64,000 nt of DNA from Vicinamibacterales bacterium (lineage in GTDB: Bacteria; Acidobacteriota; Vicinamibacteria; Vicinamibacterales; UBA2999): assembly GCA_964202965.1 (NCBI GenBank), contig CAXNKG010000003.1, forward strand, positions 23,032 through 87,031, given 5' to 3'. The position numbers and the translations under genes are program-made. Under the pieces are notes generated by a model. It was not told the DNA's origin, ran no database searches, and saw only the letters and a list, made by a program, of their open reading frames with translations. Shown here in pieces: positions 3,459 through 62,909 of the stretch (within the stretch, counting starts at the first letter, position 1; each line of letters opens with the position of its first letter).

Positions 3459-4046
3459 TCAATGTCCAGGAATCATGATGTGCGCGGTCGACGTCCCGGC
3501 ATTCATGATCCACGCACCGCCCATTTTCGGATTGTCGGGCAATCCCGTTGACTGGGTCGTCGCACCCGGTGTGGCGACGGTCATGTGTGGGCGCGCGCGC
3601 GCCTGGTCGGGTCCACTCAGGTTGTGAAACCCGGACCCGTACTCGGGCTTGACGCGGGTTCCGTCCTTTTCCGACGCGTCGAGCATCGCCTGTTTCTTGT
3701 CGCCCATGGCTTCGAATGTCAGATTCTGCGCGACACGGACGAGATTGGCGATGCTGGTGCACTCAATCGAGAACGCCGGCTGTCCGGCCTGTCCCGATCG
3801 GTCGTAGCACACCAGACGGTTCGTGCCCTTCCTCAGCGTGTCGTACGTGAAATCCGGTTTCCACTTGACGACCGTGGCCTGGTCGCGCTGGTTGGCGGGA
3901 GCCGCGAGCACGGCCTTGTCGACGTCGGCCTGCGACGCCCCCTGCTCCAGTGGCGGGAGCGGCGGGGCTGCGCCGCGGCCCTCCTGCGCAAAAACGCTGG
4001 TCGAAACGAGCAGCGCACCAACAATGAGAGTAACGAGACGTGTCAT
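3459..4046 (-). CDS. secreted hypothetical protein
   Basis: 195 aa with signal peptide MTRLVTLIVGALLVSTSVFAQ. Coding-like composition; no family recognised. Confidence 0.6.
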   Translation of the reverse strand: MTRLVTLIVGALLVSTSVFAQEGRGAAPPLPPLEQGASQADVDKAVLAAPANQRDQATVVKWKPDFTYDTLRKGTNRLVCYDRSGQAGQPAFSIECTSIANLVRVAQNLTFEAMGDKKQAMLDASEKDGTRVKPEYGSGFHNLSGPDQARARPHMTVATPGATTQSTGLPDNPKMGGAWIMNAGTSTAHIMIPGH

Positions 4047-8082: not shown

Positions 8083-9345
8083 CTACTGCTTCTTGCCCTG
8101 ATCGTGCGGCACGACGACGCCCACGTTCGCCGTCGCCCTGTTGCCGGTGTCATCCGTGCACGTGACGGTCACCGTATACACCCGCCCGCTGCCATTGCCA
8201 CTGCGGGCCGCCCGCAGCCGAACGGACAGCGGACCGGTCACGGCGAGGTCGCCGGAGTCGCCCTCGTTGCTGGTCACTGACGTGACTTCGCAGGTCGGAT
8301 TGGCAGTGAAATCGTCAGTGGCGGTAACGGTGATTGAGACGTCCTTCATCGTGTCGTCTGGCGGCCACAGCGCATCGGGCGACGCCGACGTCGCCGTGAT
8401 CACGGGCGGCGTTGTGTCCACGACGCAGCCCTCAAAATCGCACGCCTGGTAGGCGGCGGTCTCGCCCGCCAGAGTGGAGATCATGTTGGGAGCATTGCCG
8501 CCGCTACGCCAGGCGATGAAGTTCGTGACCTTGTACGGCCCGTCGAGACCGCTCGAGCCGATGGCCGTACCGTCGAAGCGGAGGGGAAGGGTCCTCGCCC
8601 CAGCGGAAAAGAACCCACTGCCAGTCGCCATGCCGAGGTTCGTTCCGTCCGGAGCCTCGATCGCCGCGCTCCAGCGGTAGGTACCTGCTGCCGGATCTTC
8701 CAGGTTGACCAGGAAGCTGACGTCCAGATGCTCATACTTGCCATTGGAGTTCGTATCGACGCCGTGTTCGTCGATCCCGATCAGTGACATGCCGTGGCTG
8801 GTGGTCACCTCCTCCAGGATCAGGGCCGCCCAGTCGATGGCCGTGCACCAGACAAATTCTGCGTTGGCCGTATCGATCTCGATCGTCACGTCATTGCTCA
8901 CCGCTCCTGAGCCGCCGGTCGGAAACACGACCTTCGCGATCGGCACGTAGAACGAATTCAGGGTCCAGGCGTTGTTGATGCCCAGAAGATGTCCCAGGTT
9001 GAGCCCATTGAACGAGACGATGTCGACCTCCGGCTGGTAGCCAGGCACGTTCGCCTTGTCATCGACATCGAACGCCGGCATCAACAGTTTCGCGGTGGCC
9101 GGCAGGACGCTCGGGAGGCTATCGACCGGGATCTGAATGCGGAGCGGACTGCCATTGCGGAAGGTGCAGCCGGTATCGAGCCCGCCGCCGGAATCAATCA
9201 CGAAGACGTTGTTCGAGGGATTGGGCGGATCGATTGGCGCACTGCCGCTATGCGCTGCCCAGACGACGGCTGGCAGCGCCATCGTGAGAGCCGCGATACC
9301 GGCGAGTATCGACCTCGAAAGGGTCCTGCTTGCGAGTATTCGCAT
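8083..9345 (-). CDS. secreted protein with C-terminal Ig-like module
   Basis: ATG 9345 (MRILASRTLSRSILAGIAALTMALPAVVWA) follows AAGGAGG. The C-terminus carries the recurring LWPPDDTM...SNEGDSGD...LRAARSGNGSGRVYTVTVTCTD...VVVPHDQG module seen in many secreted bacterial proteins. Confidence 0.7.
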   Translation of the reverse strand: MRILASRTLSRSILAGIAALTMALPAVVWAAHSGSAPIDPPNPSNNVFVIDSGGGLDTGCTFRNGSPLRIQIPVDSLPSVLPATAKLLMPAFDVDDKANVPGYQPEVDIVSFNGLNLGHLLGINNAWTLNSFYVPIAKVVFPTGGSGAVSNDVTIEIDTANAEFVWCTAIDWAALILEEVTTSHGMSLIGIDEHGVDTNSNGKYEHLDVSFLVNLEDPAAGTYRWSAAIEAPDGTNLGMATGSGFFSAGARTLPLRFDGTAIGSSGLDGPYKVTNFIAWRSGGNAPNMISTLAGETAAYQACDFEGCVVDTTPPVITATSASPDALWPPDDTMKDVSITVTATDDFTANPTCEVTSVTSNEGDSGDLAVTGPLSVRLRAARSGNGSGRVYTVTVTCTDDTGNRATANVGVVVPHDQGKKQ

Positions 9346-33170: not shown

Positions 33171-33589
33171 AAGCGTCGCAGCTTTCCGTAAGCCGAATCC
33201 TGTCCAGCCGTCGCGGCCTTGCGGCCGCTATGACCTGGACGACCATTCCTCTAGGCCCGCGATTGCTCGCGGGCTCAAGCGACCTACCCGGTGGCTTCGG
33301 ACGGGCCGTCCTCAAACGCCACCCTATTTGGTCTTGCTCCGTGCGGGGTTTTGCCTGCCACCCGTGTTGCCACGGGCGCGGTGCGCTCTTACCGCACCTT
33401 TTCACCCTTACCCACCATAGCGCCGAGGCGCGACGGTGGGCGGTATTTTTTCTGTGCCACTATCCGTCAAGTTGCCCTGCCCGGGCGTTACCCGGCGCAC
33501 TGCCCTCTGGAGTTCGGACTTTCCTCCCGCCTCCGCCGTTGGCCGTGAAGCCCGCGCGGAGACCGGCGGTCGTCTGGATTACTGCGACT
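33171..33589 (-). ncRNA. rnpB: RNase P RNA, bacterial type A
   Basis: The minus strand contains the universal cores GGAGGAAAGTCCGAACTCC, AAGGGTGAAAAGGTGCGGTAAGAGCGCACC and ACAGGATTCGGCTTAC. P1 pairing is GTCGCAG (33588..33582) with CTGCGAC (33181..33175). Only junk ORFs occur on both strands. The ends are approximate. Confidence 0.92.
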
Positions 33590-33604: not shown

Positions 33605-35038
33605 CTACCCGTCGAGTTCCTGCTTGATCCCGTGCTGTTCCAGCTTCTTGTACAGGTTGCTGCGGGGCGTATCGATCACCTCAGCCGTCTTCGAGATGTT
33701 CCAGTTGTTCTCCCGGAGCTTCTGCACGAGGAAGGCCCGCTCCGCCACATCCTTGAACTCGCGCAGGGTGCCGGCGCCCGTCCCCGCGATGTCCGCGGGC
33801 GCTGCTTCCGCCGGGGCTTCGAGCCGGCTGACGCCCGGCTCTGCATCAGCGTCCGGCGGGCGCGCCGCGCCCTCTCCCCTCATGTCCCGCGGCAAGTCCT
33901 CCGTGCGTACGCTGTCGCCCGCAGCCATGATCAGCACGCGCTCGACGGTGTTGCGCAGCTCGCGGATGTTTCCCCGCCAGCGGTACCGCTGGAGCGCCTC
34001 CAGCGCGCGCGCGTCGAAGCGCTTGGGCCGGAGGTTGTGCTCCTCGCTGATGCGCTTCGCGAAGTGCTGCACGAGCGCCGGAATGTCGGCCTTCCGGTCG
34101 CGCAGCGGCGGCACGACGATCGGGATGACATTCAGCCGGAAGAAGAGATCCTCACGGAACTCGCCCCGCGCGATCGCGTCCTCGAGGTCCTTGTTGGTGG
34201 CCGCGATGACGCGCACGTCCACCTTGATGGTACGCGCCGACCCGAGCCGTTCGACTTCCTGCTCCTGCAGCACCCGCAGGACCTTGGCCTGCGTCTTGGG
34301 GCTCATGTCGCCGATTTCATCCAGGAAGATCGTGCCGCGGTCGGCCTGCTCGAACTTGCCGATCTGCTTCTCGGTCGCGCCGGTGAACGATCCCCGTTCG
34401 TGCCCGAAGAGCTCCGACTCGATGAGTTCCTCCGGAATCGCCGCGCAGTTCACCTGGACGAACCGCTGCCCCGCCCTGGAGCTGTTCCGGTGAATCGTCC
34501 TGGCTACGAGCTCCTTCCCCGCACCGCTCTCGCCGAGCAGCAGCACGGTCGCATTGGTGGGGGCGGCACGTCTGACGTCCTCGAGCACCCGCCGGAGCGC
34601 CGGGCTGTCCCCGACGATCTCGTACTTCGCCTCCATCGCGAGCTTCAGCTCACGGTTCTCCTGCCGCAGATCCTGGGTCGCGAGCACGTTCTGGAGCGTG
34701 ACGATGACGCGCTCGCTGCTGAGGGGCTTGTCCAGGAAGTCGACCGCGCCGGACTTGATCGCGTCGACGGCGGTGCTGGTCGTGCCATGGCCGGAAATCA
34801 TCACCACAGGCATGGTGTCGTCGATGGCGCGGATCTGACGCAGCGTCTCCATGCCATCCATCCCTGGCATTTTGATGTCGAGCAGCACCACGTCCGGCCG
34901 TTCGCGCCGGAGGGCGGCGAGCCCCTCCTGCGCTGATCCCGCGCCGGTAAACCCGTAGTGTTCGTACTCGAGGATCATCCGCAACGAATCACGGATCGCC
35001 GGCTCGTCGTCGATGACCAGAATTTTGGGTTTCATCAC
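33605..35038 (-). CDS. NtrC-family sigma-54-dependent response regulator (REC-AAA+-HTH)
   Basis: KILVIDDEPAIRDSL...VLLDIKMPGMDG; GESGAGKE; near-canonical ELFGHERGSFTGA; GNIRELRN; C-terminal Fis-type HTH. Confidence 0.92.
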   Translation of the reverse strand: MMKPKILVIDDEPAIRDSLRMILEYEHYGFTGAGSAQEGLAALRRERPDVVLLDIKMPGMDGMETLRQIRAIDDTMPVVMISGHGTTSTAVDAIKSGAVDFLDKPLSSERVIVTLQNVLATQDLRQENRELKLAMEAKYEIVGDSPALRRVLEDVRRAAPTNATVLLLGESGAGKELVARTIHRNSSRAGQRFVQVNCAAIPEELIESELFGHERGSFTGATEKQIGKFEQADRGTIFLDEIGDMSPKTQAKVLRVLQEQEVERLGSARTIKVDVRVIAATNKDLEDAIARGEFREDLFFRLNVIPIVVPPLRDRKADIPALVQHFAKRISEEHNLRPKRFDARALEALQRYRWRGNIRELRNTVERVLIMAAGDSVRTEDLPRDMRGEGAARPPDADAEPGVSRLEAPAEAAPADIAGTGAGTLREFKDVAERAFLVQKLRENNWNISKTAEVIDTPRSNLYKKLEQHGIKQELDG

Positions 35039-35043
35039 AAACA

Positions 35044-35129
35044 GGTTCCGGGTTCCACGTTCCGGGTTCCGGGTTCGATCGCAACGCCGAACATGAACCT
35101 GGAACCCGGAACCTGGAACTCGGAACTGT
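35044..35129. repeat. inverted pair of heptanucleotide arrays (GGTTCCG units) forming a long imperfect hairpin
   Basis: GGTTCCG GGTTCCA CGTTCCG GGTTCCG GGTTCGA - tcgcaacgc - CGAACAT GAACCTG GAACCCG GAACCTG GAACTCG GAACTGT. It fills the gap between the protease stop (35136) and the regulator start (35038). Confidence 0.85.
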
Positions 35130-35135
35130 CGAAGT

Positions 35136-36617
35136 TCACCGTTCCAGTGTGACGGTTTCGAGCGTGCGCTGGCCGAGCTCGGGCTTGTAGACGTACATCG
35201 TGAGAATGTCGCCGGGCGAGACGCGGTCGGTCAGCCGCCGGTAGTCGTCCACGCCCGCCACGCGCTGGCGATTGATTTCGAGCACCACATGGCCGCGCTC
35301 GATGTCGGCGTCGAACGCGGGACTCATCGCCTCGACGCGCGACACGATGACGCCGCGCATGCCGTCCGGCAGGCGGTACCGGCCCGCTGACTCCTCGTCG
35401 AGTTCGCGGACCGACAGTCCGATCGGCGAACCTCGATACGTCGACGGCTCAGGCCGTGAGCCCTCCGTGGCCGGGCGATCCCGTCCCGGCCGCTCGGCGA
35501 GCTTCACCGTGACGTTCAGGGAGCGGCCGTCGCGCAGCACCTGCAGCGTCGCGGCCGAGCCTGGCTCGCGGGCCGCGATCAGCTGGATGAGCGAATCGTT
35601 GCTCTCAATGGAGCGGCCGTCCACCGCGACAATGACGTCGTAGGTCCGGATGCCGGCGCGGGCCCCTGGCGAATCGGGGGTCACGTCCTGGACGAGCGCG
35701 CCGGTGGCGGACGCGAGGTTCAGCGACTGCTGGAGGTCCCGATCGACGTCCCGGAGCGTCACGCCGATGTAGCCGCGCGACACCCGTCCCTTGTCGCGCA
35801 ATTGCGGCAGGATCTCGCTGGCCTGGTTGATCGGCACGGCAAAACCGATGTTCGCCGCGCGCGAGCTGATCGCCGAATTGATCCCGATGACGTCGCCGTC
35901 GGCATTGATCAGCGGCCCGCCGCTGTTGCCGAAGTTAATGGCCGCGTCCGTCTGGATGTAGCGATCCAGCGACCGGTCGAACAGCTTCCGGCCGATGAAG
36001 CTGACCACGCCCACCGTCACGGTGTGCTCGTACGCCAGCGGGTTGCCGATCGCGATGACCCACTCGCCTACCCGCAGCGCATCGGAGTTGCCCAGGGGCG
36101 CATGCGGCAGCGGCCCGGCCGCCTCGACCTTGACGAGGGCGATGTCGGTATCGGGATCCGAGCCGACCGTGGTGCCGCGCAGCTCGCGGCCGTCACTGAG
36201 GCGAACCATGATCCGGTCGGCGCCTTCGATCACGTGATGATTCGTGAGGATGAACCCCTCGGCATCGATGAGGAAGCCGGTCCCCGCGCCGCGGCGGGGT
36301 CCGTCAGGATCCTGAGGCTGTGGCCGCTGGAAGATGTCGGGCCCGTTCGGAAAGGGCGACGTCCGCCGCCGGCGCGGGGCCTCACCGCGGGTGGTCGCGC
36401 CGATGTTGACGACCGTCGGATTCAGGCGCTCGGCGACGTCGGCAAAGGACGCGGTCGCGATGGCTATGCGGGTCGCCGGCGTGTCGGCGACGCGCGGCGC
36501 GGGCGGCGTGGCGGAGATGGCCGGCGCGGGGGTCATGGAGCCCGCGACAACAAGGCCGACGAGAAACGCGACCGTCGCGGCCAACGCCGACGTCACCGCC
36601 AGGAACCGCCGGGTCAT
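35136..36617 (-). CDS. DegP/HtrA-family periplasmic serine protease with two PDZ domains
   Basis: ATG 36617 (MTRRFLAVTSALAATVAFLVG). Catalytic triad contexts TNHHVIEGA, DTDIALVKV, GNSGGPLIN. The upstream part of track ORF 35136..36731 overlaps ligA. Confidence 0.9.
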   Translation of the reverse strand: MTRRFLAVTSALAATVAFLVGLVVAGSMTPAPAISATPPAPRVADTPATRIAIATASFADVAERLNPTVVNIGATTRGEAPRRRRTSPFPNGPDIFQRPQPQDPDGPRRGAGTGFLIDAEGFILTNHHVIEGADRIMVRLSDGRELRGTTVGSDPDTDIALVKVEAAGPLPHAPLGNSDALRVGEWVIAIGNPLAYEHTVTVGVVSFIGRKLFDRSLDRYIQTDAAINFGNSGGPLINADGDVIGINSAISSRAANIGFAVPINQASEILPQLRDKGRVSRGYIGVTLRDVDRDLQQSLNLASATGALVQDVTPDSPGARAGIRTYDVIVAVDGRSIESNDSLIQLIAAREPGSAATLQVLRDGRSLNVTVKLAERPGRDRPATEGSRPEPSTYRGSPIGLSVRELDEESAGRYRLPDGMRGVIVSRVEAMSPAFDADIERGHVVLEINRQRVAGVDDYRRLTDRVSPGDILTMYVYKPELGQRTLETVTLER

Positions 36618-36627
36618 CGTCTGTCCA

Positions 36628-39686
<3,059 letters not shown>

Positions 39687-39704: not shown

Positions 39705-40490
39705 CTACGGCTTGAAGAGCCGTACGAAGTTGTCGCGCGTGGCCGCGGCGATGTCGCCCGCCGTGGTGCCGCGGAGAGCGGCGACCGCGCTGGCGACGTG
39801 GATCACCCGAGCCGGCTCGTTGCGGGTTCCCCGGTGCGGCACCGGCGCCAGGAAGGGGCTGTCGGTTTCGATGAGGAGCCGATCGATCGGCACGAGCCTC
39901 GCGACGTCATGGAGCTCGTGTGCCCGCGGGAATGTCACGATGCCCGCCAGCGAGAGGTAGAAGCCGAGATCGAGCGCGCGCGCCGCCATGGCGCGGTCGC
40001 CCGTGAAGCAGTGCAGGACCACGCCGGTGTCGCCGGCGGATTCCTCCGCCAGTACGCGGAACGTATCCTCCTCTGCCTCCCGGGTATGGATGATGATGGG
40101 CAGCGCCAGGCGGCGGGCGGCGCGGATCTGTTCGCGGAAGACCGCCTGCTGCACATCGCGCGGCGCGAAGTCGTAGTGGTAGTCGAGCCCAATCTCCCCA
40201 AGTGCGCGGGCGGCGGGCCGGCCGGCGATGCGCGCCTCCACCAGGCGGGCCGCGCGGCCCGGGTCGTCCGCAAACTGCGCAGCGGCGTGGGGGTGGACCC
40301 CAACGGACAGCCTGATCGCGTCCCAGGCGGCGGTCACGACGTTGGCGCGCTCGTACTCCGCCTCGTCATCCGCCGCGATGATGACGAGCGCCCCCGTCAG
40401 CCCGGCGGCCCGGGCGCGCTCGATGACGGCTGGAAGATCGGCCTCGAACTCCTCGCCGGCCAGGTGGCAGTGCGAGTCAACGAAAGTCAA
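39705..40490 (-). CDS. tatD: TatD-family metal-dependent hydrolase
   Basis: TTG start giving (M)TFVDSHCHLAG; IIHTREAEEDT; LLIETDSPFLAP. Confidence 0.9.
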   Translation of the reverse strand: MTFVDSHCHLAGEEFEADLPAVIERARAAGLTGALVIIAADDEAEYERANVVTAAWDAIRLSVGVHPHAAAQFADDPGRAARLVEARIAGRPAARALGEIGLDYHYDFAPRDVQQAVFREQIRAARRLALPIIIHTREAEEDTFRVLAEESAGDTGVVLHCFTGDRAMAARALDLGFYLSLAGIVTFPRAHELHDVARLVPIDRLLIETDSPFLAPVPHRGTRNEPARVIHVASAVAALRGTTAGDIAAATRDNFVRLFKP

Positions 40491-40520
40491 AGGTCAAAAG
40501 TCAAAAGTCAAAAGTCAGGG
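40486..40520. repeat. heptanucleotide tandem array (GTCAAAR x5)
   Basis: GTCAAAG GTCAAAA GTCAAAA GTCAAAA GTCAGGG lies in the 38-nt gap between the metG stop and the tatD start. The tatD TTG codon lies in the first unit. Confidence 0.85.
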
Positions 40521-47955: not shown

Positions 47956-48089
47956 TCACAAGAGTGTAACAGCCACGAACGGCGTACCTGCCACGCCTCT
48001 CGTATCGTCGCTACTGCAACACGCGGTGCTCCCGTTCATGAGATCTTCAAGGTTCCGCGTCGGCACGTCACTGGCTTCGCCGTTCGACG

Positions 48090-48290
48090 ATGGTAGGATT
48101 GACCGGAGAACAGCGCCGAATGCTCATCGACAAGCTTCCTGACGCCGCCAACCTCGCGCTCGGCGGGCTCGTATTCGGACAGTTCCTCGGCGATCGCACG
48201 TTCTCGATCGCGATCGCGATTCTCGGAGTTGTCACGTGGAGCGCATTCATCGGTGGCGCCTTCGTCCTTGGCAGGAAGAAGGACGTATGA
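48090..48290 (+). CDS. small two-TM membrane protein, function unknown
   Basis: 66 aa with two hydrophobic segments. ATGA overlap with the next small ORF. Confidence 0.4.
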   Translation: MVGLTGEQRRMLIDKLPDAANLALGGLVFGQFLGDRTFSIAIAILGVVTWSAFIGGAFVLGRKKDV

Positions 48291-48409
48291 CCGGGCTGTA
48301 CATCATCTTTGGCGGAATGCTTCTCTTCGTCACGGTTGTCGTGACCTACGACCTCCTCGCGCGCCGCCAACACCGGCGGCAGCGCGAGCAGGAGCGCCGC
48401 TCGGCATAA
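48287..48409 (+). CDS. 40-aa single-TM peptide, function unknown
   Basis: My translation: MTGLYIIFGGMLLFVTVVVTYDLLARRQHRRQREQERRSA. Below the track size cutoff; coupled to the upstream ORF. Confidence 0.3.
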   Translation: MTGLYIIFGGMLLFVTVVVTYDLLARRQHRRQREQERRSA

Positions 48410-48427
48410 GGGCGGCGGTGAGTGACC

Positions 48428-48805
48428 TCAGCGCAGCCCCGACCAGTTCAGAAGCAGCGTGATTGGCGAGACCCCGGTATCACCGATCGATTTCGTCGTC
48501 AGGAAGCGTCCATCGGGCGCCACCGCGTAATTCGTCCGAGCGACCAACGCGAAGCTGATCCTCGTCTGAAAGAGCGCTGTGGCATGGAGGCGCGTGCCAT
48601 CGGGCGACCACACAGGGTCCGTTTCGGTGGTGCTCCCGAACGTAGCGCGCGCCGTGGCGATGGTCGGCCGTCTGCCCGCGCGCGTGCGCCGCCGCGAGTC
48701 CCTGAGCGATCTGCACCGCGTAGTCGATCGCCTTGCGCGGCCGCCGGCGCCCAGGGCGGACTGGATCTCACACGGGCCGAGACGTGTGCCTGCCGTCAGC
48801 GACAT
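48428..48805 (-). pseudogene. heavily deleted remnant of a Ser/Thr kinase - TolB-like beta-propeller gene
   Basis: It starts with the kinase N-terminus MSLTAGTRLGPCEIQSALGAGG. A second frame holds the catalytic-lobe fragment AIDYAVQIAQGLAAAHARG. The tail is propeller-like: TDPVWSPDGTRL...YAVAPDGRFL...PITLLLNW. About 125 codons survive of what is normally a very large protein. Confidence 0.55.
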
Positions 48806-48874
48806 TCGTGGGGAATACGAGCAGCGGAATTTATAGGCCGGTCCGCATGTCTCGGCGGTGGGACGATGCCACCA

Positions 48875-49636
48875 TCATGTGAAGGGCTCGGCGCCAGCCT
48901 CCAGGACCTGTTTCACTGTGTAGAGCCGTGAGGCATCGGTCGCCGAATCGATTGCCCGCCCCATCAGGCGGCGCAGGCCGATGATGTCGCGCAGCACACC
49001 GAACGTCCGCGACAGGCCGTACTTCGACCGGCCAGACCGGCGGGGGCGGTGATTCACCACGACCTCGGTCACCCGGCTTCCGAGCTGGCTGGCCAGCGCC
49101 GGCAGGTACCGGTGCATCCCGGGGGCGAGCTTCAACGGTTTGACGACGGCCGCCCGAAAGACCTTCAAGGAGCAGCCGTTGTCGTGGAGCCGGATGCCGC
49201 TGACGATGCCGAGCAGCCAGTTGGCGGCGACTGACGGGACGTGCCGGGTCAGGAACGCATCCTTCCGGTTCCTGCGCCAGCCGCAGACGATATCGTGCGT
49301 CCTGGCCAGGTCGAGCAGGCGCGGGATGTCCGCCGGGTCGTTCTGGAGGTCCCCGTCGAGCGTGACGATGAGCGTTCCGCGAGCATGCGCGAAGCCGGCG
49401 GCAAACGCCGCCGTCTGGCCGAAGTTCCGCTCGAACTGAATGACCCGCAGATGCGGGTCCCCGGCCTGCAGGCGGCGCAGCGTCGCGAACGTCGCATCCT
49501 CGCTCCCGTCGTCAATGAGGATCACCTCGTAGGGCCGGCCAATCGACTGCATGACGCCGGTCAGCTCGGTGATGAGCGGCTCGACGTTGCCCTCCTCATC
49601 GCGAAGGGGGATGACGATGGAGATGTCCGGGGCCAA
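48875..49636 (-). CDS. family 2 glycosyltransferase (polyprenyl-phosphate sugar transferase, ArnC/GtrB-like)
   Basis: ISIVIPLRDEEGNV, ILIDDGSED, VTLDGDLQNDP, and a C-terminal membrane-associated segment. TTG start. Confidence 0.88.
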   Translation of the reverse strand: MAPDISIVIPLRDEEGNVEPLITELTGVMQSIGRPYEVILIDDGSEDATFATLRRLQAGDPHLRVIQFERNFGQTAAFAAGFAHARGTLIVTLDGDLQNDPADIPRLLDLARTHDIVCGWRRNRKDAFLTRHVPSVAANWLLGIVSGIRLHDNGCSLKVFRAAVVKPLKLAPGMHRYLPALASQLGSRVTEVVVNHRPRRSGRSKYGLSRTFGVLRDIIGLRRLMGRAIDSATDASRLYTVKQVLEAGAEPFT

Positions 49637-50287
49637 TTAGGTGATTCTATCCGGCGGGTCCGCCGCTCGATGCGGCCGCGACTCGCGGCGAGACCCGCCC
49701 CACGCACCGAATCGCCGTACGAGCCACCAGGCGAAGGCGCCGGCCACGATCAGGCCTGCGAGCCAAAGCGCCACCTCCCGGCCGCGTGTGCGCATCACCT
49801 CCAGAGCCACGTCGCCGTACCAGACAGCCAGGAAACCGAGCAGCGTGTACCGGAAGCCGCGGGCGACCGCGATGGCGCCGACGAAATGCAGCGGCCGCAC
49901 GCCGGCGACACCGGCCATCAGCACGAAGAGCTTGAATGGCGCGGGCGGCGGCAGGAGCGCCGGCACGATCAGGGCGAGCAATCCGTACCGCCTGTAGAGC
50001 GCCAGGGCGCGCTCCGTATGGCCGGGCCGCAGGCGTTTCCTGAGGAAGGCGTCCCCGCCGCGCTCGGCCAGAGAGTAAATGACGTAGCAGCCGGCAATCG
50101 AGCCGAGGGTCGCCATCGCGACGTAGTACGGCATGAGCGCCTTGTGCTGCGTGACCATCAGCACCACGAGGATGTCGTTGATCTGGGGGAGAGACAGGAA
50201 GGACGAGTCGAGAAAGGCGATCGCCAGAAGGCCCGGCCCGCCGATGGCAAGGGCGAACCCGTACAGCCAGTTGATCAACGCCTTCAC
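49637..50287 (-). CDS. DedA/YqaA-family membrane protein
   Basis: 216 aa, multiple TM helices, SNARE-associated-type core. GTG start. Confidence 0.78.
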   Translation of the reverse strand: MKALINWLYGFALAIGGPGLLAIAFLDSSFLSLPQINDILVVLMVTQHKALMPYYVAMATLGSIAGCYVIYSLAERGGDAFLRKRLRPGHTERALALYRRYGLLALIVPALLPPPAPFKLFVLMAGVAGVRPLHFVGAIAVARGFRYTLLGFLAVWYGDVALEVMRTRGREVALWLAGLIVAGAFAWWLVRRFGAWGGSRRESRPHRAADPPDRIT

Positions 50288-50316
50288 GGAGCAGCTAGGC
50301 TACCTTAGGTCGCCCA

Positions 50317-50372
50317 CCTTTGACCTTTGACCTTTGACCTTTGACCTTTGACCTTTGACTTCTGACTTTTGA
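50317..50372. repeat. heptanucleotide tandem array (CCTTTGA x6 perfect, then 2 degenerate)
   Basis: CCTTTGA x6, CTTCTGA, CTTTTGA. It starts one nt after the stop of the 50374..51081 gene and ends 30 nt before the DedA start. It is the reverse complement of the unit at 40486..40520. Confidence 0.9.
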
Positions 50373-50373
50373 C

Positions 50374-51081
50374 TTAAAAACGAACCCCCACCGTCGCCTG
50401 ATACGTCCAGCCGCCCAGATCGATTCGCAGATCCGGATCGACGGCCGCGAACCGGTCACCGAGCGGCGCGTCGGCGCTCTGATACCGCACCTCGAATCCT
50501 CCGCTCAGCGCATCGCCGGCGAATCGCAGCCCGCCAAGGATGACGGGGCCGGTCGCGTTGCCTGAGGCGACATATTGCTGCCGGAAGATCGCGTTGCGGC
50601 GCTGGAAGTCGACGAACTCCCCGAATTCACTGTAACGCCACGCGACCACGCCGAGGCCGCCCCCGAGGTACGGCTGCACCGGCGACGTCTGGCCGAGCGG
50701 CAGCACGCGGACGGTGAAGGCGACTGGCATCAGCCGCATCCGCGACTCCTGGTCGATCTCTGTACCATCGTGATCGACGAACTCCGCGTACACCGACGGC
50801 ACCGTCCGCCGGGAGAAGGACACCCCGGCGCCCGCCTCGACGTAATTGCCGAGGGGCATCAACCACTCGACCCCAATCGAGCCGGTGTTGAACTCGCTGA
50901 TCTCGAATTCGCGGAAGTTACGGTTGTCGATGAGGACGTCGTGTTCGACGCGGGCATCCTCGCCCTGAACGGCGAAGTATCCGAACGTGAAGTTCAGCGT
51001 CTGCTGGGCGGCGGCGGGTGCGGCCGTGCCGAGGAGCAGGGCGGCTGCGGCCGCCGTGAGAGCTCGAGCGTATGTGCACAT
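50374..51081 (-). CDS. small outer-membrane beta-barrel protein
   Basis: Signal peptide ending AAAQQ, amphipathic beta strands, terminal ...ATVGVRF. Confidence 0.65.
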   Translation of the reverse strand: MCTYARALTAAAAALLLGTAAPAAAQQTLNFTFGYFAVQGEDARVEHDVLIDNRNFREFEISEFNTGSIGVEWLMPLGNYVEAGAGVSFSRRTVPSVYAEFVDHDGTEIDQESRMRLMPVAFTVRVLPLGQTSPVQPYLGGGLGVVAWRYSEFGEFVDFQRRNAIFRQQYVASGNATGPVILGGLRFAGDALSGGFEVRYQSADAPLGDRFAAVDPDLRIDLGGWTYQATVGVRF

Positions 51082-51113
51082 GCCTTGGCTGTGTGCACGG
51101 CGGGTGCCAGCGG

Positions 51114-51929
51114 TTATGTCCTGTCTGGAGCACGCTGGCCGCGGTATCCGGCGATCAGGCTGGTCATCTCGTCATGGATGTGTCCGTTGGAGGCGACGAG
51201 GTGCGCCGCGGCCGAATCGAAGGGAGTGCCGTCCATTCCAGTCACCCTGCCGCCAGCCTCCTCGACGATCAGCGCCCCCGCCGCCACGTCCCACGGTTTG
51301 AGGTGCTGCTCCCAGAAGGCATCAAAGCGCCCCGCGGCGACATAGCAGAGGTCCAGCGCTGCCGAGCCGAGCCGGCGGACCGCGCGGGATCGCGACAGGA
51401 AGAGCGCGAACAGCTCCACGAGCGACGTAGCGTTCTGGTGCACGTCGTACGGAAATCCCGTCACCAGAAGGGCCTCGCTGACCGCTGTGGTCGCCGACAC
51501 CGCGAGCGGCGTGCCGTTGAGAAAGGCTCCCCCACCGCGCTCCGCCGTGAACAGCTCGCGCCTGGTCGGGTCGTAGATCGCGGCCACTTCCCGCTGACCG
51601 TCACGCTCGAGGCCCAGCGATGAGCAGTAGATAGGCAGGCCGTGTGCGTAGTTCGTGGTCCCGTCGAGCGGGTCGAAGACCCAGCGCCAGCGGGACGGTG
51701 CGCGGTCGGTGGGGACGCTGCCCAGTTCCTCGGCGAGCACGTCGTGCTCCGGGAAGCGCTCGGCGATCACGGCGCGGCACATGCGCTCGCACTCGAGGTC
51801 GACCTCGGTGACCAGATCGATCGCGCTCTTCTTCGAGATGGTAAAACCGGACGCCTGGCGTGCGAGCTGAATCTCGCCGGCACGGAGCACGATGTCGACA
51901 GCTGTGGCGAGGAGGGCCGGATCGGGCAA
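51114..51929 (-). CDS. inositol monophosphatase family protein
   Basis: AEEL...WVFDPLDGTTNY, AALDLCYVAAGRFDAFWE. Confidence 0.88.
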   Translation of the reverse strand: MPDPALLATAVDIVLRAGEIQLARQASGFTISKKSAIDLVTEVDLECERMCRAVIAERFPEHDVLAEELGSVPTDRAPSRWRWVFDPLDGTTNYAHGLPIYCSSLGLERDGQREVAAIYDPTRRELFTAERGGGAFLNGTPLAVSATTAVSEALLVTGFPYDVHQNATSLVELFALFLSRSRAVRRLGSAALDLCYVAAGRFDAFWEQHLKPWDVAAGALIVEEAGGRVTGMDGTPFDSAAAHLVASNGHIHDEMTSLIAGYRGQRAPDRT

Positions 51930-52403: not shown

Positions 52404-52438
52404 TAATTAACCACCAACCACGAACCATTGCTATAGTC

Positions 52439-55468: not shown

Positions 55469-56125
55469 CTAGTTATCCGCGGAAAGATACAGGGCATCGA
55501 GCCGTGTCCGCTGCTCCTCGAGGCGCACGCGCATCCGCAGCAGCAGCACGAACATCAGCAGGAACGTCACCGCACTGAACCAGAGCGGCAGTCCGAAGGA
55601 GGTCGGCAGCGTCGGCACGACGCTGGTCGTCGGGTGAATCGTCCGCCAGTAGTTCACCGAAATGTAGATGAACGGCACGTTCGCCATCCCGAACATCGCG
55701 AGGCCGGCCCCGAGCTTATCCGACCCTGGCCCGCCGTACTTTCGCAGCAGCATGTAGGCAACCGCGACCATCCATCCCATCAGGCTGGACGTCAGCCGGA
55801 CGTCCCATTGCCACCAGACGCCCCACGCCTTGCGGGCCCACAGAGGACCGGTGATCAGCGTGATGGCTCCGAACAGCACGACCAGCTCCGCCGCAGCCCA
55901 CGCCGTTCGGTCATGGCGCGGGTTGCCCCCGAAGAGATACCGGACGCTCGCAATGCCGCAGACGATGGCCGACAGGAGGAAGACCCAGGCGGACGGAAGA
56001 TGCACGTAGAAGATCTTCTGCACGAGCCCCATCGTGGACTCGTACGGCGCCTGGGCGATGAGCACCGGCGCAACCGCGAACATCAGGCCGCAGACGACCG
56101 CGGCAGGAGTGAACCATGTAGGCAT
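55469..56125 (-). CDS. ccmC: haem exporter / haem lyase subunit CcmC
   Basis: ATG 56125 (MPTWFTPAAVV). WWD-type motif WGVWWQWDVRL and conserved His contexts. The extra N-terminus in track ORF 55469..56185 is translated repeat DNA. Confidence 0.92.
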   Translation of the reverse strand: MPTWFTPAAVVCGLMFAVAPVLIAQAPYESTMGLVQKIFYVHLPSAWVFLLSAIVCGIASVRYLFGGNPRHDRTAWAAAELVVLFGAITLITGPLWARKAWGVWWQWDVRLTSSLMGWMVAVAYMLLRKYGGPGSDKLGAGLAMFGMANVPFIYISVNYWRTIHPTTSVVPTLPTSFGLPLWFSAVTFLLMFVLLLRMRVRLEEQRTRLDALYLSADN

Positions 56126-56126
56126 A

Positions 56127-56204
56127 GGCTTTGGGCTTTGGGCTCTGGGCTTTAGGCTTTGGGCCGGCCAAGGGCCGAGAGCCAAAAGCCTAGCGCCTAG
56201 AGCC
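56127..56204. repeat. inverted pair of heptanucleotide arrays (GGCTTTG units) around a GGCCGGCC centre
   Basis: GGCTTTG GGCTTTG GGCTCTG GGCTTTA GGCTTTG GGCCGGC | CAAGGGC CGAGAGC CAAAAGC CTAGCGC CTAGAGC. It fills the ccmB-ccmC gap up to 1 nt from the ccmC ATG. Confidence 0.85.
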
Positions 56205-56207
56205 CTT

Positions 56208-56885
56208 TCAGTCTGTCATCAACGGCTCGAACGTCCAGAGCGCCAGTGTCACGAACACCACGTCGAAGCATGCCAGTAGCGCCAGCCAGAAGCCGATGAT
56301 GCTGGCGTCCACCTCTGGCTGCAGCAGCGCGGCGGTCGCGCGAACCCCGGCAATGATGACCGGAACGGTGATCGGATACAACAGCACCGGCAGCAGCACG
56401 TCGCGGCTGCGGGCGCGCACGAGCATGGCGGCGAACAGCGTGCCGACGGCCGCGAAGCCAATCGTCCCGAACACCAGGACGATCGCCAGCCAGCCCGGCC
56501 TCTCAAGCAGCGGCGCCTGGAACAGCAGCGCAACGAGCGGCACCAGGATCATCTCTGCGCCGATGAGCAGGACCACGACGCCGAGCAGTTTGCCGACATA
56601 AATCGCAGGCCGGGACGCCGGCGCCAGCAGAAGCGCGCGCAGCGTCTCGGACTGGCGCTCGCGCTCGAACGTCCGGCCCAGCGCCAGCGTCCCCGCAAAC
56701 GCGATCGCGATCCAGAGGATGCCCGCGGCGCCACCCTCCGGCGCGCGTCCCTCCTGGACCAGCGCGAACGCGAAGATCAGGACGCAGGAGACGGCGAAGA
56801 AGAGCATGGTGTACGCGATCTCCAGGCTCCGGACCTCCACCGTGAAGTCCTTGCGCAGCACCAGCCACACGATGCGCCCGAACAC
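56208..56885 (-). CDS. ccmB: haem exporter permease CcmB
   Basis: 225 aa, six TM helices, CcmB-like over the full length. Confidence 0.9.
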   Translation of the reverse strand: MFGRIVWLVLRKDFTVEVRSLEIAYTMLFFAVSCVLIFAFALVQEGRAPEGGAAGILWIAIAFAGTLALGRTFERERQSETLRALLLAPASRPAIYVGKLLGVVVLLIGAEMILVPLVALLFQAPLLERPGWLAIVLVFGTIGFAAVGTLFAAMLVRARSRDVLLPVLLYPITVPVIIAGVRATAALLQPEVDASIIGFWLALLACFDVVFVTLALWTFEPLMTD

Positions 56886-57586: not shown

Positions 57587-58812
57587 GCGGCGACGTCCCT
57601 GCCGCCTCCCCTCGGGCCTGGATCGACATGATCCAGCTCGCCATAAATCTGTTCGAGTTCGGCAACGATGCGCTGGTGCCGCGCGTCGTCGGATCCGGAA
57701 GGCGCCCGTCGCCTCCGTTTGTATTCGAGCCCCGCAAGCTCCGCGAGGAGCTTCTCTCGTCGCGCGGCCAGGCGGCCTGCGGACCCATCCACGCGCGTGC
57801 GCCCGCTGAACCCGAGCCACAGGCCTCCCGCAATGACGAGGCCTGCGATCCCGAGCGCGGTGAACACGGGCGTGCGGCTATGCACCGGCAGGTCGGACAG
57901 CTCCATCGTCAGCGTCGAGCCAGCGGGCATCGCGTTGCCGCTGGCCAGGAGAAACGGCGTGCCCGTTTCTGGCGCCGTCACATCACCCACCGTCGAAAAT
58001 TGCGGCGACGATATCGAGACGGCTCCGACCTTCTCGATGGCGACGCTCAACTGCTCCAGCGCGACAGGCCAGGCCTGTTCAACGGTGATGTCCGCACTGG
58101 TGTACGGAAGCTGAAAGCCGACCTGGACGGACGTGAGCCCTGCGGCGAACGGTCCGACGACGGTCACGACGTCCCCGCTGATCGTCGCGCTGGGCGAAGA
58201 TCCTTCGAGCGTCGACGCGCCCGCCGCGCCCGTCGGGAGCTGCAGGATCAATGGACCACCGATGTCAACGCGCGCACGCGCGTTATTGACGATGTCGAAA
58301 ATGTAGAAGACGCGCAGCGTGTCGTCCCGGAACTCCATGAGGATGCGCGAATTCGGCCCAAGGACGACCGAGCCTTTGACGGGCGGCGCCGCGGCAGCCG
58401 CCGCGTCCTCCTGCGATTTTCGCGCGGCGGCGTCTTTCATCCCCGCCACGAGAATCACGCGGAGACCACCGGTCGCAGGCACCGTGAAGGAGTCGGAGGT
58501 CAGCGCCTCGCCGCCGATCGTGGCGTCGGCGCGCACTTCCGCGCCGGCTGTCAGGCCGGGAAACTCGGCACGGCCCTCCGCATCGGTCGTGGCTGTGCGC
58601 GGCTGTCCGTTGACCGTGAGGCGGACGCTCTGGCCGGTGATGTTGTTGCCGATGGCTTCACGGACGACGCGGACGGTCACCGTGCCTGGAGCGAGATCGC
58701 CCGCCGGGATCGCCCGGCCGTGAATCAACGACGGATCCGGCATGGCAATCTGGGCGAACAGCACCCCAAATCCCAGAAGCCACATCCCACAACCCAAAAC
58801 GACCCGCGTCAC
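57583..58812 (-). CDS. uncharacterised exported protein with CarboxypepD_reg-like N-domain, C-terminal TM anchor and cytoplasmic coiled-coil tail
   Basis: 409 aa. Signal-like N-terminus, GTVTVRVV...GQSVRLTVNGQPRTATTDAEGRAEFPGL beta-sandwich, TM ALGIAGLVIAGGLWLGF, then RREKLLAELAGLEYKRR...IVAELEQIYGELD. GTGA overlaps on both sides. Confidence 0.6.
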   Translation of the reverse strand: MTRVVLGCGMWLLGFGVLFAQIAMPDPSLIHGRAIPAGDLAPGTVTVRVVREAIGNNITGQSVRLTVNGQPRTATTDAEGRAEFPGLTAGAEVRADATIGGEALTSDSFTVPATGGLRVILVAGMKDAAARKSQEDAAAAAAPPVKGSVVLGPNSRILMEFRDDTLRVFYIFDIVNNARARVDIGGPLILQLPTGAAGASTLEGSSPSATISGDVVTVVGPFAAGLTSVQVGFQLPYTSADITVEQAWPVALEQLSVAIEKVGAVSISSPQFSTVGDVTAPETGTPFLLASGNAMPAGSTLTMELSDLPVHSRTPVFTALGIAGLVIAGGLWLGFSGRTRVDGSAGRLAARREKLLAELAGLEYKRRRRAPSGSDDARHQRIVAELEQIYGELDHVDPGPRGGGRDVAA

Positions 58813-61800: not shown

Positions 61801-62316
61801 CTAGTACGACGTACTAGGGGTTCCTGAAGTTCCTAGGGTTCCTGAGGTTCCTAGGGTTCCTGAGGTTCCTAGGGTTCCTGAGGTTCCTAGGGTTCCTGGG
61901 GTTCCTGGAGTGCCTGAAGTTCCTGGGGTGCCGCCGACCTGGGGCTCGTATTTCGACGGGCACTTCGCGGTCATGCTGGTCGCGTGGAAGCCGTCCTCCG
62001 CGAGCGTGCCCTGAAGCACCACCTCAGACTCGTTCTTGAACGTGTCGGGAACGACGCCCGTATACGTGGCGCGTACCACGTGCCCCTTGCTGTGCATCTC
62101 GAAGCTGTAGTCGAGGGAGTCGCGCTTGCGGCGGATGTCCCTGGCGTAGCCGTGAATCTGGAGCGGCTTGCCGTACCAGGGTGCCGGCTGGACCATCACT
62201 TCCTCGACGTGCTTGTAGTACTGCGCGCTCTCGCCGAGCGTGGAATAGAGCAGCCCCCCGAAGGCGAGGGTCAGCACCACGCCGGTGATCCCGATTTTCG
62301 CGGCTTTGTGACTCAT
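61801..62316 (-). CDS. ccmE: haem chaperone CcmE, CxxxY variant with Gly-Thr-X repeat tail
   Basis: ATG 62316 ([23 protein letters not shown]). OB-fold core. MTAKCPSKY aligns where canonical CcmE has the HxxxY haem-binding motif. The tail is [43 protein letters not shown]. Confidence 0.88.
61818..61934. repeat. 13 tandem 9-bp units (GGTTCCTNR) inside the ccmE 3' end
   Basis: The 18-bp unit GGTTCCTGAGGTTCCTAG occurs about 4 times, flanked by degenerate 9-mers. It shares the GGTTCC core with the array at 35044..35129. Confidence 0.9.
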
Positions 62317-62345
62317 AGGTAAGGACTTCTGCCCCTCAGGTGCCC

Positions 62346-62909
62346 TCAGGATACCAATATTCCCGCGTTCTTGCACAGGTCGTAGACAAGGCCAACCGGC
62401 AGCCCGACCACATTCGTATAGGGGCCGGAAATCGTCGTCACAAAGCGCGAGGCCAGCCCCTGGATCGCATACGCGCCCGCCTTGTCCGAGGGCTCGCCAG
62501 ACGCCACGTACCAGTCGATGTCCCCGTCCGTGAGCGGCGCGAAGTGGACGGTGGTGGATGCGATCTCCGTCTGGAGCGCCCCAAACGCGAGGCAGACCCC
62601 CGTCAACACCACGTGCGCTCGCCCCGACAGCATCCGCAGCATCCGCTTCGCGTCCGCTGCGTCAGCCGGCTTTCCGAGAATGTCGTCCCCGCAGACGACC
62701 ACCGTATCGGCCCCGAGCACCGGCCGCCCCGCTGCCCTGTCAATCACCGCGCGTGCCTTGGCTTCGGCGAGCCGCGCGACGTAGGCGTCCGCAGCTTCGC
62801 CGTCGCGCCGCGTCTCGTCGACGTCCGCCGTCAGCACGTCGAACGCGATGCCCGCCGCGCGGAGCAGCTCGGCTCGTCTGGGTGACGCCGACGCCAGGAC
62901 TAGCCGCAC
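62346..62909 (-). CDS. maf: Maf-family nucleoside triphosphate pyrophosphatase
   Basis: [29 protein letters not shown]. Confidence 0.9.

Follow-up and report, generated by a model that had tools for sequence, protein, structure and literature searches.

A run of 7-base units stands between an outer-membrane protein (OMP) gene and a DedA-family gene in a 64-kb stretch of Vicinamibacterales DNA, and the locus raises the question of what kind of repeat this is, how it came to stand at that junction, and whether it acts on either gene. The whole 64-kb stretch is henceforth referred to as the window. The array proved to be a 7-base tandem repeat that expanded recently, and the genes on either side of its spacer run in the same direction.

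Sequence and setting of the array

On the plus strand, six perfect CCTTTGA units at 50317-50358 are followed by CTTCTGA (50359-50365) and CTTTTGA (50366-50372). TRF reported the array as 50316-50373, with a period of 7, 8.3 copies, 94% matches and a score of 95. A preliminary description of this DNA had counted six perfect and two degenerate units after the OMP stop and called the array the longest heptamer array of the window; both points were confirmed by the coordinates and the TRF copy number. Features of the window that are discussed here are collected in Table 1.

Table 1 Features of the array locus and of other heptamer arrays in the window.
Feature	Coordinates	Strand	Details
Hairpin of heptamer arrays	35044..35126		(GGTTCCG)x4.7, 18-nt loop, (GGAACCY)x4.6; TRF and folding
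Second array of the same family	40483..40517	-	(TGACTTT)x5 in transcription direction; between metG stop (40529) and tatD
DedA/VTT-domain membrane protein gene (downstream gene)	49637..50287	-	GTG start 50285-50287
DedA leader, 28 nt	50288..50315	-	GTGGGCGACCTAAGGTAGCCTAGCTGCTCC; between array end and DedA GTG
Perfect period-7 run, 6.3 copies	50316..50359	-	(GTCAAAG)x6 in transcription direction, CCTTTGA on plus strand; exact period-7 run
Two degenerate units	50360..50373	-	GTCAAAA, GTCAGAA; directly after OMP stop TAA (50374-50376)
Outer-membrane beta-barrel protein gene (upstream gene), 235 aa	50374..51081	-	Pfam OMP_b-brl E 7e-5, below gathering score
Short array, AACCACC/TGGTTGG unit	52409..52427		2.7 copies; L002 orthologous spacer (8608-8670), 8.9 copies
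Hairpin-type array	56127..56204		(GGCTTTG)x5.4 with partial inverted partner; between ccmB and ccmC
Degenerate array, TTTGGGA/CCCAAAT unit	58772..58800		L002 orthologous spacer (2297-2330), 4.9 cleaner copies

In transcript orientation, the 86 nt that separate the OMP stop from the DedA start read TAA GTCAAAA GTCAGAA (GTCAAAG)x6 GTGGGCGACCTAAGGTAGCCTAGCTGCTCC GTG, and the array lies wholly inside this spacer, ending 28 nt before the DedA GTG. Homologues of the OMP carry the JGI names 'opacity protein-like surface antigen' and 'outer membrane protein W', and those with a taxonomic name are assigned to Vicinamibacterales or Acidobacteria. The DedA N-terminus, MKALINWL, is kept in relatives, and the CCTAAGGTAGCCTA core of the leader is kept upstream of the DedA GTG in close relatives, array present or absent. 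In the more distant relatives L085, L092, L096, L030, L023, L024 and L027 a consensus TATAAT (TATAATCACGRG) was noted ~30 nt ahead of the DedA GTG; members of the window clade are without that TATAAT, and CCTAAGGTAGCCTA is conserved there instead. Small ORFs running over the array (50295-50459, minus; 50133-50330, plus) were dismissed as frame artefacts of the repeat.

Chance was ruled out as the source of the array by comparison with 200 first-order Markov versions of the window. The longest period-7 self-match run covers 37 positions; in the simulations it averaged 8.7 and never exceeded 14. Two perfect arrays of at least three copies were observed in the 64-kb window where 0.005 were expected. 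Upon scanning periods 5-15 in the window, perfect arrays of at least three copies were found only at period 7, and both are of one unit family. The GC content of the window is 66.7%. An identical locus with an identical array is present on the ENA soil-metagenome contig L001, and the OMP protein is identical on two further contigs.

Local history of the OMP-DedA junction

Orthologous junctions were collected from 80 species genomes, 80 metagenome contigs and selected close relatives, and five configurations were found among them. In many relatives the OMP gene is followed by a hairpin with inverted heptamer arrays as its arms, then by a convergent gene, referred to as geneX, that encodes a 487-aa membrane protein without a Pfam match, and then by DedA. 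In L167 and L168 (OMP 89% identical) the stop is followed by GGAAAAG GGTAAAG GGTAAAG GGAAAAT, a loop, ACCCTTT TACCTTT TCCCTTT GACCTT and geneX, and this hairpin folds far better than its shuffles (z -4.3). GTCAAAR arrays paired with YTTTGAC arrays precede geneX in L030, L084 and L086 (OMP 66-72%), with folding z of -4.9 in L030 and -5.8 in L084, and a long GTCAAAG array directly follows the OMP TAA in L090. In L002, L162 and L163 (OMP 89-90% identical) there is no array; the OMP stop overlaps the convergent geneX, and DedA begins 26 nt beyond the geneX start. L164 (OMP 92%) lost geneX by a clean internal deletion that left both gene ends and no array.

The same geneX-less OMP-DedA order as in the window is present in L165 and L166 (92% amino acid and ~89% nucleotide identity to the window). 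Their 51-nt spacer, TAA GCAAAAG GCCACGA GTCAAAG GTCGGGCT CCTAAGGTAGCC, is homologous to that of the window, which for comparison is written TAA GTCAAAA GTCAGAA (GTCAAAG)6 GTGGGCGA CCTAAGGTAGCC. The window spacer holds eight units in 86 nt, compared to one GTCAAAG among three degenerate units in the 51 nt of L165/L166, and is longer by exactly 35 nt, or five units, which indicates that the window array expanded by five units. The recent expansion and length variability claimed in the preliminary description are thereby shown between species: the unit number is not fixed across relatives but differs between the window and L165/L166.

The window and L165/L166 have neither geneX nor the distal hairpin arm, and keep the proximal A-rich arm beside DedA. 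At least two independent losses of geneX took place, differing in their end points, one in L164 (858-937) and the other in the window/L165 lineage (window 50288-50373 compared with L002 10698-12187); L096 (about 3688-3800) retains remnants of the geneX 3' end together with the distal hairpin arm. No inverted partner was found for the 50316 array or the 40483 array, and partner arrays are present at the orthologous OMP-DedA site in L030, L084, L086 and L167, so that the window copy is a half-element. An array or hairpin of some kind follows the OMP stop in relatives whose OMP identity ranges from 92% down to about 50%. The units at this place are, by lineage, GTCAAAG, CACGAAG/CACGACG, AAATGCA, AAAGGTA, GGTTAAA, AACTCCC, GCAGAAG and GGTCTTC; thus period and place persist while the sequence changes.

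Judged from these comparisons, the 50317 array sits at the geneX deletion junction and is most likely what remains of the proximal arm of an ancestral hairpin, and its expansion in the window lineage is shown by the homologous spacers. From the few lineages available we infer that the deletion came before the expansion. Alternatively, the array may have been born de novo at the deletion junction, since the nearest geneX-bearing relatives (L002, L162) are without the hairpin.

Two further observations were made on the same loci. L165/L166 carry a PIN/PhdYeFM toxin-antitoxin pair between a GT2 glycosyltransferase gene and tilS (L165 5069-5870); the GT2-tilS interval of the window (about 47986-48885) is ~900 nt that are non-homologous to L165 and contain small ORFs only (40 and 56 aa in L001). 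The MAGs L002, L027, L028 and L038, which are GTDB species representatives, are labelled Candidatus Sulfopaludibacter, Bifidobacteriaceae or Bifidobacterium despite a Vicinamibacterales-type syntenic locus, and these bins are probably mislabelled or chimeric.

A second array of the family between metG and tatD

The array at 40483-40517 reads AAAGTCA/AAGGTCA on the plus strand, which is the reverse complement of the 50317 unit, and the two arrays are therefore of one family. Because metG and tatD also lie on the minus strand, the two arrays are opposite in orientation relative to transcription, and the statement that the heptamer family occurs in both orientations was borne out. The (TGACTTT)x5 array supplies the TTG start of tatD (40488-40490) and the first two tatD codons, and the Pfam TatD match begins at residue 4 of the product. 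Relatives for this junction were reached through TatD homologues, since only L001 among the 80 genome loci covers it. The array is absent from relatives with TatD 86-90% identical (L169-L177, about 1470-1515), in which the TatD reading frame opens with GTG ATT GAT TCG (M I D S H). In these relatives the metG stop and the tatD start are both covered by a tandemly duplicated 14-nt sequence, GGTGATTGATTCGC, in two to three copies, and the C-terminus encoded by metG also differs from that of the window. The existence of further arrays of the TTTGAC family also held: 26 matches to the GTCAAAG family were found in 17 loci, compared to 0-4 in shuffles.

A MITE- or REP-like mobile element that spread GTCAAAG arrays and caused the geneX deletion would account for the presence of the unit family at non-orthologous sites in several species, for both perfect window arrays being lineage-specific insertions with respect to relatives, and for the position of the array exactly at the deletion junction. 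Such an origin is nevertheless highly improbable. The flanks of the 40483 and 50317 arrays, compared by reading, are dissimilar beyond the heptamer, and neither terminal inverted repeats nor target-site duplications were seen on reading. The independent geneX deletion in L164 took place without an array, and a degenerate proto-array is already in place in L165, which favours growth in situ. Of the traits of REP/BIME elements, which are imperfect palindromes of 20-40 nt, present in many copies and associated with a RAYT transposase, the palindrome was looked for in the 50316 array, and the array itself is not palindromic.

Heptamer arrays across Vicinamibacterales

Tandem repeats with a TRF score of at least 40 were collected from 1.53 Mb, consisting of the 80 species loci and the window. 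Period 7 leads by a wide margin, with 114 arrays (about 74 per Mb) compared to 15 arrays of period 6, 30 of period 8, 19 of period 10 and 13 of period 11; periods in multiples of three are mostly coding repeats. By a rough GC3-based gene caller, 95 of the 114 period-7 arrays (83%) lie outside confident coding sequence. A reverse-complement partner array is present within 150 nt for 68 of the 114 (60%), and 33 start at most 15 nt from a stop codon. The mean GC of the period-7 arrays is 55%, compared to 68% overall. Certain units recur at non-orthologous sites, namely AACTCCC (nine times), AAAAGTC/AAAGGTC (eight) and AAAGCCC (five), and the family of both perfect window arrays makes up only ~7% of the order-wide sample.

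Between the window and L002 (~85% nucleotide identity), arrays at orthologous positions have unequal copy numbers, and those at 52409-52427 and 58772-58800 (Table 1) show that arrays grow and shrink at fixed sites. Longer arrays occur in relatives, including (GGTCTTC)8(GGTCTAC)4 directly after the OMP stop in L118 (about 1290-1400), CACGACC x18 (L029 58-181), ATTGACG x13.7 (L032 5452-5545) and GTTCGAA x11.6 (L010 4471-4555). The window itself contains paired arrays. The hairpin at 35044-35126 is flanked by two minus-strand genes, for a DegP-like protease (35136-36731) and a sigma-54 response regulator (33605-35038), and 35035-35135 folds to -64 kcal/mol (z -10) as a near-perfect hairpin of ~40 bp. 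The 56127-56204 array takes up the ccmB-ccmC spacer, stopping a few nt short of the ccmC start (z -3.3 for 56120-56210); it is absent in L002, whose orthologous spacer has unrelated GC-rich palindromes. No general polarity rule was apparent for paired arrays, as the terminator-like order (A-rich arm first, U-rich arm second) was split 27 vs 20. Nor did the sense-strand RNA of paired arrays appear generally more stable than the antisense (G-U vs C-A asymmetry), with 12 vs 14 by rough gene calls.

These pairs could belong to an order-wide, as yet undescribed intergenic class of hairpins with complementary heptamer-array arms drawn from a limited unit set. The two arms of such a hairpin would evolve in concert, for example by template switching, and the hairpins would function at 3' ends or as insulators, or be recognised by a factor peculiar to the lineage. 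In that case the array at 50317 would represent a half-site, with an unpaired arm that can expand freely. This reading is tentative and on the whole doubtful. Membership of the array in the heptamer-armed hairpins was itself rejected, as the 50316 and 40483 arrays are without a reverse-complement partner within ~150 nt.

Among other features of the window, a 9/18-nt array of 12.6 copies at 61817-61929 is coding and specifies the (G-T-[S/P/L])n tail at the C-terminus of a CcmE homologue (61801-62376, minus; Pfam CcmE E 5e-20, with a weak collagen-repeat match on the tail). The Rfam 15 search gave no family match at gathering score for the array; the sole Rfam match of the window is bacterial RNase P RNA class A (288 bits, 33174-33585, minus). 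No tRNA genes were found in the 64-kb window.

Structure, promoters and possible function

No sign of regulatory-switch action was seen for the 50316 array in promoter, terminator and folding scans. Both strands of 49500-51300 were scanned, and neither sigma-70-like promoters nor terminator-like sites were found (0 of each). RNA of the OMP-DedA spacer folded no better than shuffles (z 0.08), and the metG-tatD array is nearly structure-free, at -2.4 kcal/mol for 66 nt. An intrinsic (Rho-independent) terminator was rejected on the terminator and folding results. A phase-variable contingency locus was also rejected, given that the array is outside any ORF and has no promoter hexamer pair on either strand.

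The lack of structure of both single arrays in a 67% GC genome is a property that an RNA-level cis element would have, in the form of an unstructured A-rich leader (U-rich for tatD) acting as a ribosome standby site or translational enhancer, or of an S1/Csp/CsrA-like platform. Both arrays are located just upstream of, or on, a start codon; no Shine-Dalgarno sequence is suitably placed for DedA, and the TTG start of tatD falls within its array. A precedent is provided by the hypothesis put forward for TAACTGA heptamers upstream of start codons in Beggiatoaceae (PMC4679880). However, the arrays give complementary RNAs, GUCAAAG and CUUUGAC, so that a single RNA-binding factor cannot serve both, and neither the close relatives that share the DedA leader (L164, L002, L162) nor those that share tatD (L169-L177) have the arrays. 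Copy number is not conserved either, and by the rough gene calls the sense strand of hairpin-type arrays does not appear to be preferentially the more stable one. An RNA-level role is therefore considered unlikely.

Orientation indifference would be accounted for by a DNA-level element, that is, tandem transcription-factor sites, an AT-rich UP-like element or repeated TTGAC(C/T) -35-like hexamers, with copy number tuning or phase-varying DedA or an antisense RNA into OMP. The TTGACC in each plus-strand unit matches five of six positions of the -35 consensus, the array is AT-rich relative to the genome, and it took the place of the sequence that in relatives stands ahead of the conserved DedA leader. 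This possibility was judged distinctly unlikely, as there is no -10 partner at 16-18 bp on either strand, the units were added distally, which leaves the spacing next to DedA unaffected by expansion, and the unit sequences at the same site are wholly different between lineages. The host is also a soil bacterium with hundreds of such arrays predicted per genome, to which surface-antigen logic is not applicable.

The explanation we regard as probable is near-neutral slippage of an orphaned hairpin arm, with probable read-through from OMP to DedA. An ancestral heptamer-armed hairpin would have stood after the OMP gene, and a single deletion in the common ancestor of the window and L165 would have taken the loop, the distal arm and geneX. 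The surviving proximal arm would have grown by five units (35 nt) through slipped-strand mispairing in the window lineage. Having lost its partner arm, the array could not form a hairpin, and would persist as 58 nt of unstructured, A-rich sequence between the OMP and DedA cistrons that presumably neither terminates nor initiates transcription and whose copy number would drift with little fitness effect. The host lineage provides the context, being one in which 7-nt arrays are the dominant intergenic tandem repeat and commonly form both hairpin arms just after stop codons.

Near-neutrality is favoured by the absence of promoter, terminator and fold in the scans, by relatives that are without arrays, by the complementary RNAs of the two arrays and by the apparent lack of consistent polarity or sense-strand bias. 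It is strained by the finding that both lineage-specific perfect window arrays share a family that is a small minority order-wide. The limited set of recurrent units, this shared family and the persistence of arrays after the OMP stop hint at a sequence- or structure-specific constraint beyond neutral slippage.

Discussion

The array is a heptanucleotide long simple-sequence repeat (LSSR), an already described kind of bacterial repeat. Its head-to-tail units, within the 5-11 nt size range of LSSRs, form an array longer than chance allows (8.3 copies, 94%; run of 37 vs 14), its location is non-coding, copy number varies between related genomes (the window vs L165/L166; other arrays vs L002), and period 7 is in excess in the lineage (114 arrays in 1.53 Mb). 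As cited in PMC4679880 and PMC4692102, the long SSRs of most prokaryotic genomes are most often heptanucleotide repeats, an excess that has been attributed to polymerase slippage and to how much DNA the polymerase holds (Mrazek, Guo and Shah 2007). The arrays described here resemble prokaryotic LSSRs in having tandem 7-nt units beyond chance, an intergenic location, over-representation of period 7, and variation in both copy number and sequence. Unlike LSSRs as described, most arrays here are inverted hairpin-forming pairs and the unit set is lineage-specific. No description of such heptamer repeats for Vicinamibacterales was found in the literature searched.

Several more specific classes were compared. 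Iteron, CRISPR and coding-repeat readings were rejected from the sequence itself, and a G-quadruplex heptamer repeat was rejected since GGTCAAA/TTTGACC has at most GG and no G3 run. The unit here, GTCAAAG/CTTTGAC, also excludes assignment to the TAACTGA repeats or to the cyanobacterial STRR. The units of STRR1-3 are CCCCAGT, TTGGTCA and CAACAGT. STRR of Calothrix and Anabaena, as cited in PMC4692102, are similar in being tandem heptanucleotide arrays dispersed in intergenic DNA, but they come from another phylum and have unit sequences other than that of the GTCAAAG array. The G-rich heptamers of Xanthomonas and Nostoc (GGGAATC and GGGGA(T/C)T) lie between the same genes in related species and vary extensively in length, and, as here, some are inverted pairs able to form stem-loops (PMC4692102). 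Those G-rich units form G-quadruplexes, whereas GTCAAAG/CTTTGAC is without a G3 run and the single array is structure-free.

TAACTGA repeats of marine Beggiatoaceae and some Cyanobacteria and Bacteroidetes are likewise intergenic, present in 2-6 copies, near start codons and associated with many unrelated operons (PMC4679880). They consist of one unit genome-wide, in one orientation to the downstream gene and with almost no inverted copies (PMC4679880), whereas the Vicinamibacterales arrays include many unit families, both orientations and frequent inverted partners. The four-heptamer elements of Geobacter metallireducens (GGGACCG x4, 49 copies; MTYCTGA x5) are also multicopy tandem heptamers of a soil/sediment bacterium, for which a regulatory role was suggested (PMC2700814). 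In that organism copy number is fixed at 4 or 5, each family has one consensus and some elements lie within genes, in contrast to the variable copy number observed here.

Taken alone, the array is an ordinary hypermutable repeat and at most a strain marker. It also offers a clean natural case of growth in place, in which one unit became six over a nucleotide divergence of ~11%. More valuable is the wider pattern: heptamer arrays dominate the intergenic tandem repeats of an abundant and poorly studied soil order, many of them within ~15 nt after stop codons as inverted hairpin-forming pairs, and they turn over fast, to the extent of supplying a start codon (tatD). The class of heptamer-armed hairpins is the more interesting by-product of this analysis and may deserve its own description. 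The pattern bears on how 3' ends and operon boundaries are constructed in high-GC Acidobacteriota, on gene calling at starts overlapped by repeats, and on the long-standing, unexplained excess of period-7 repeats in bacteria.
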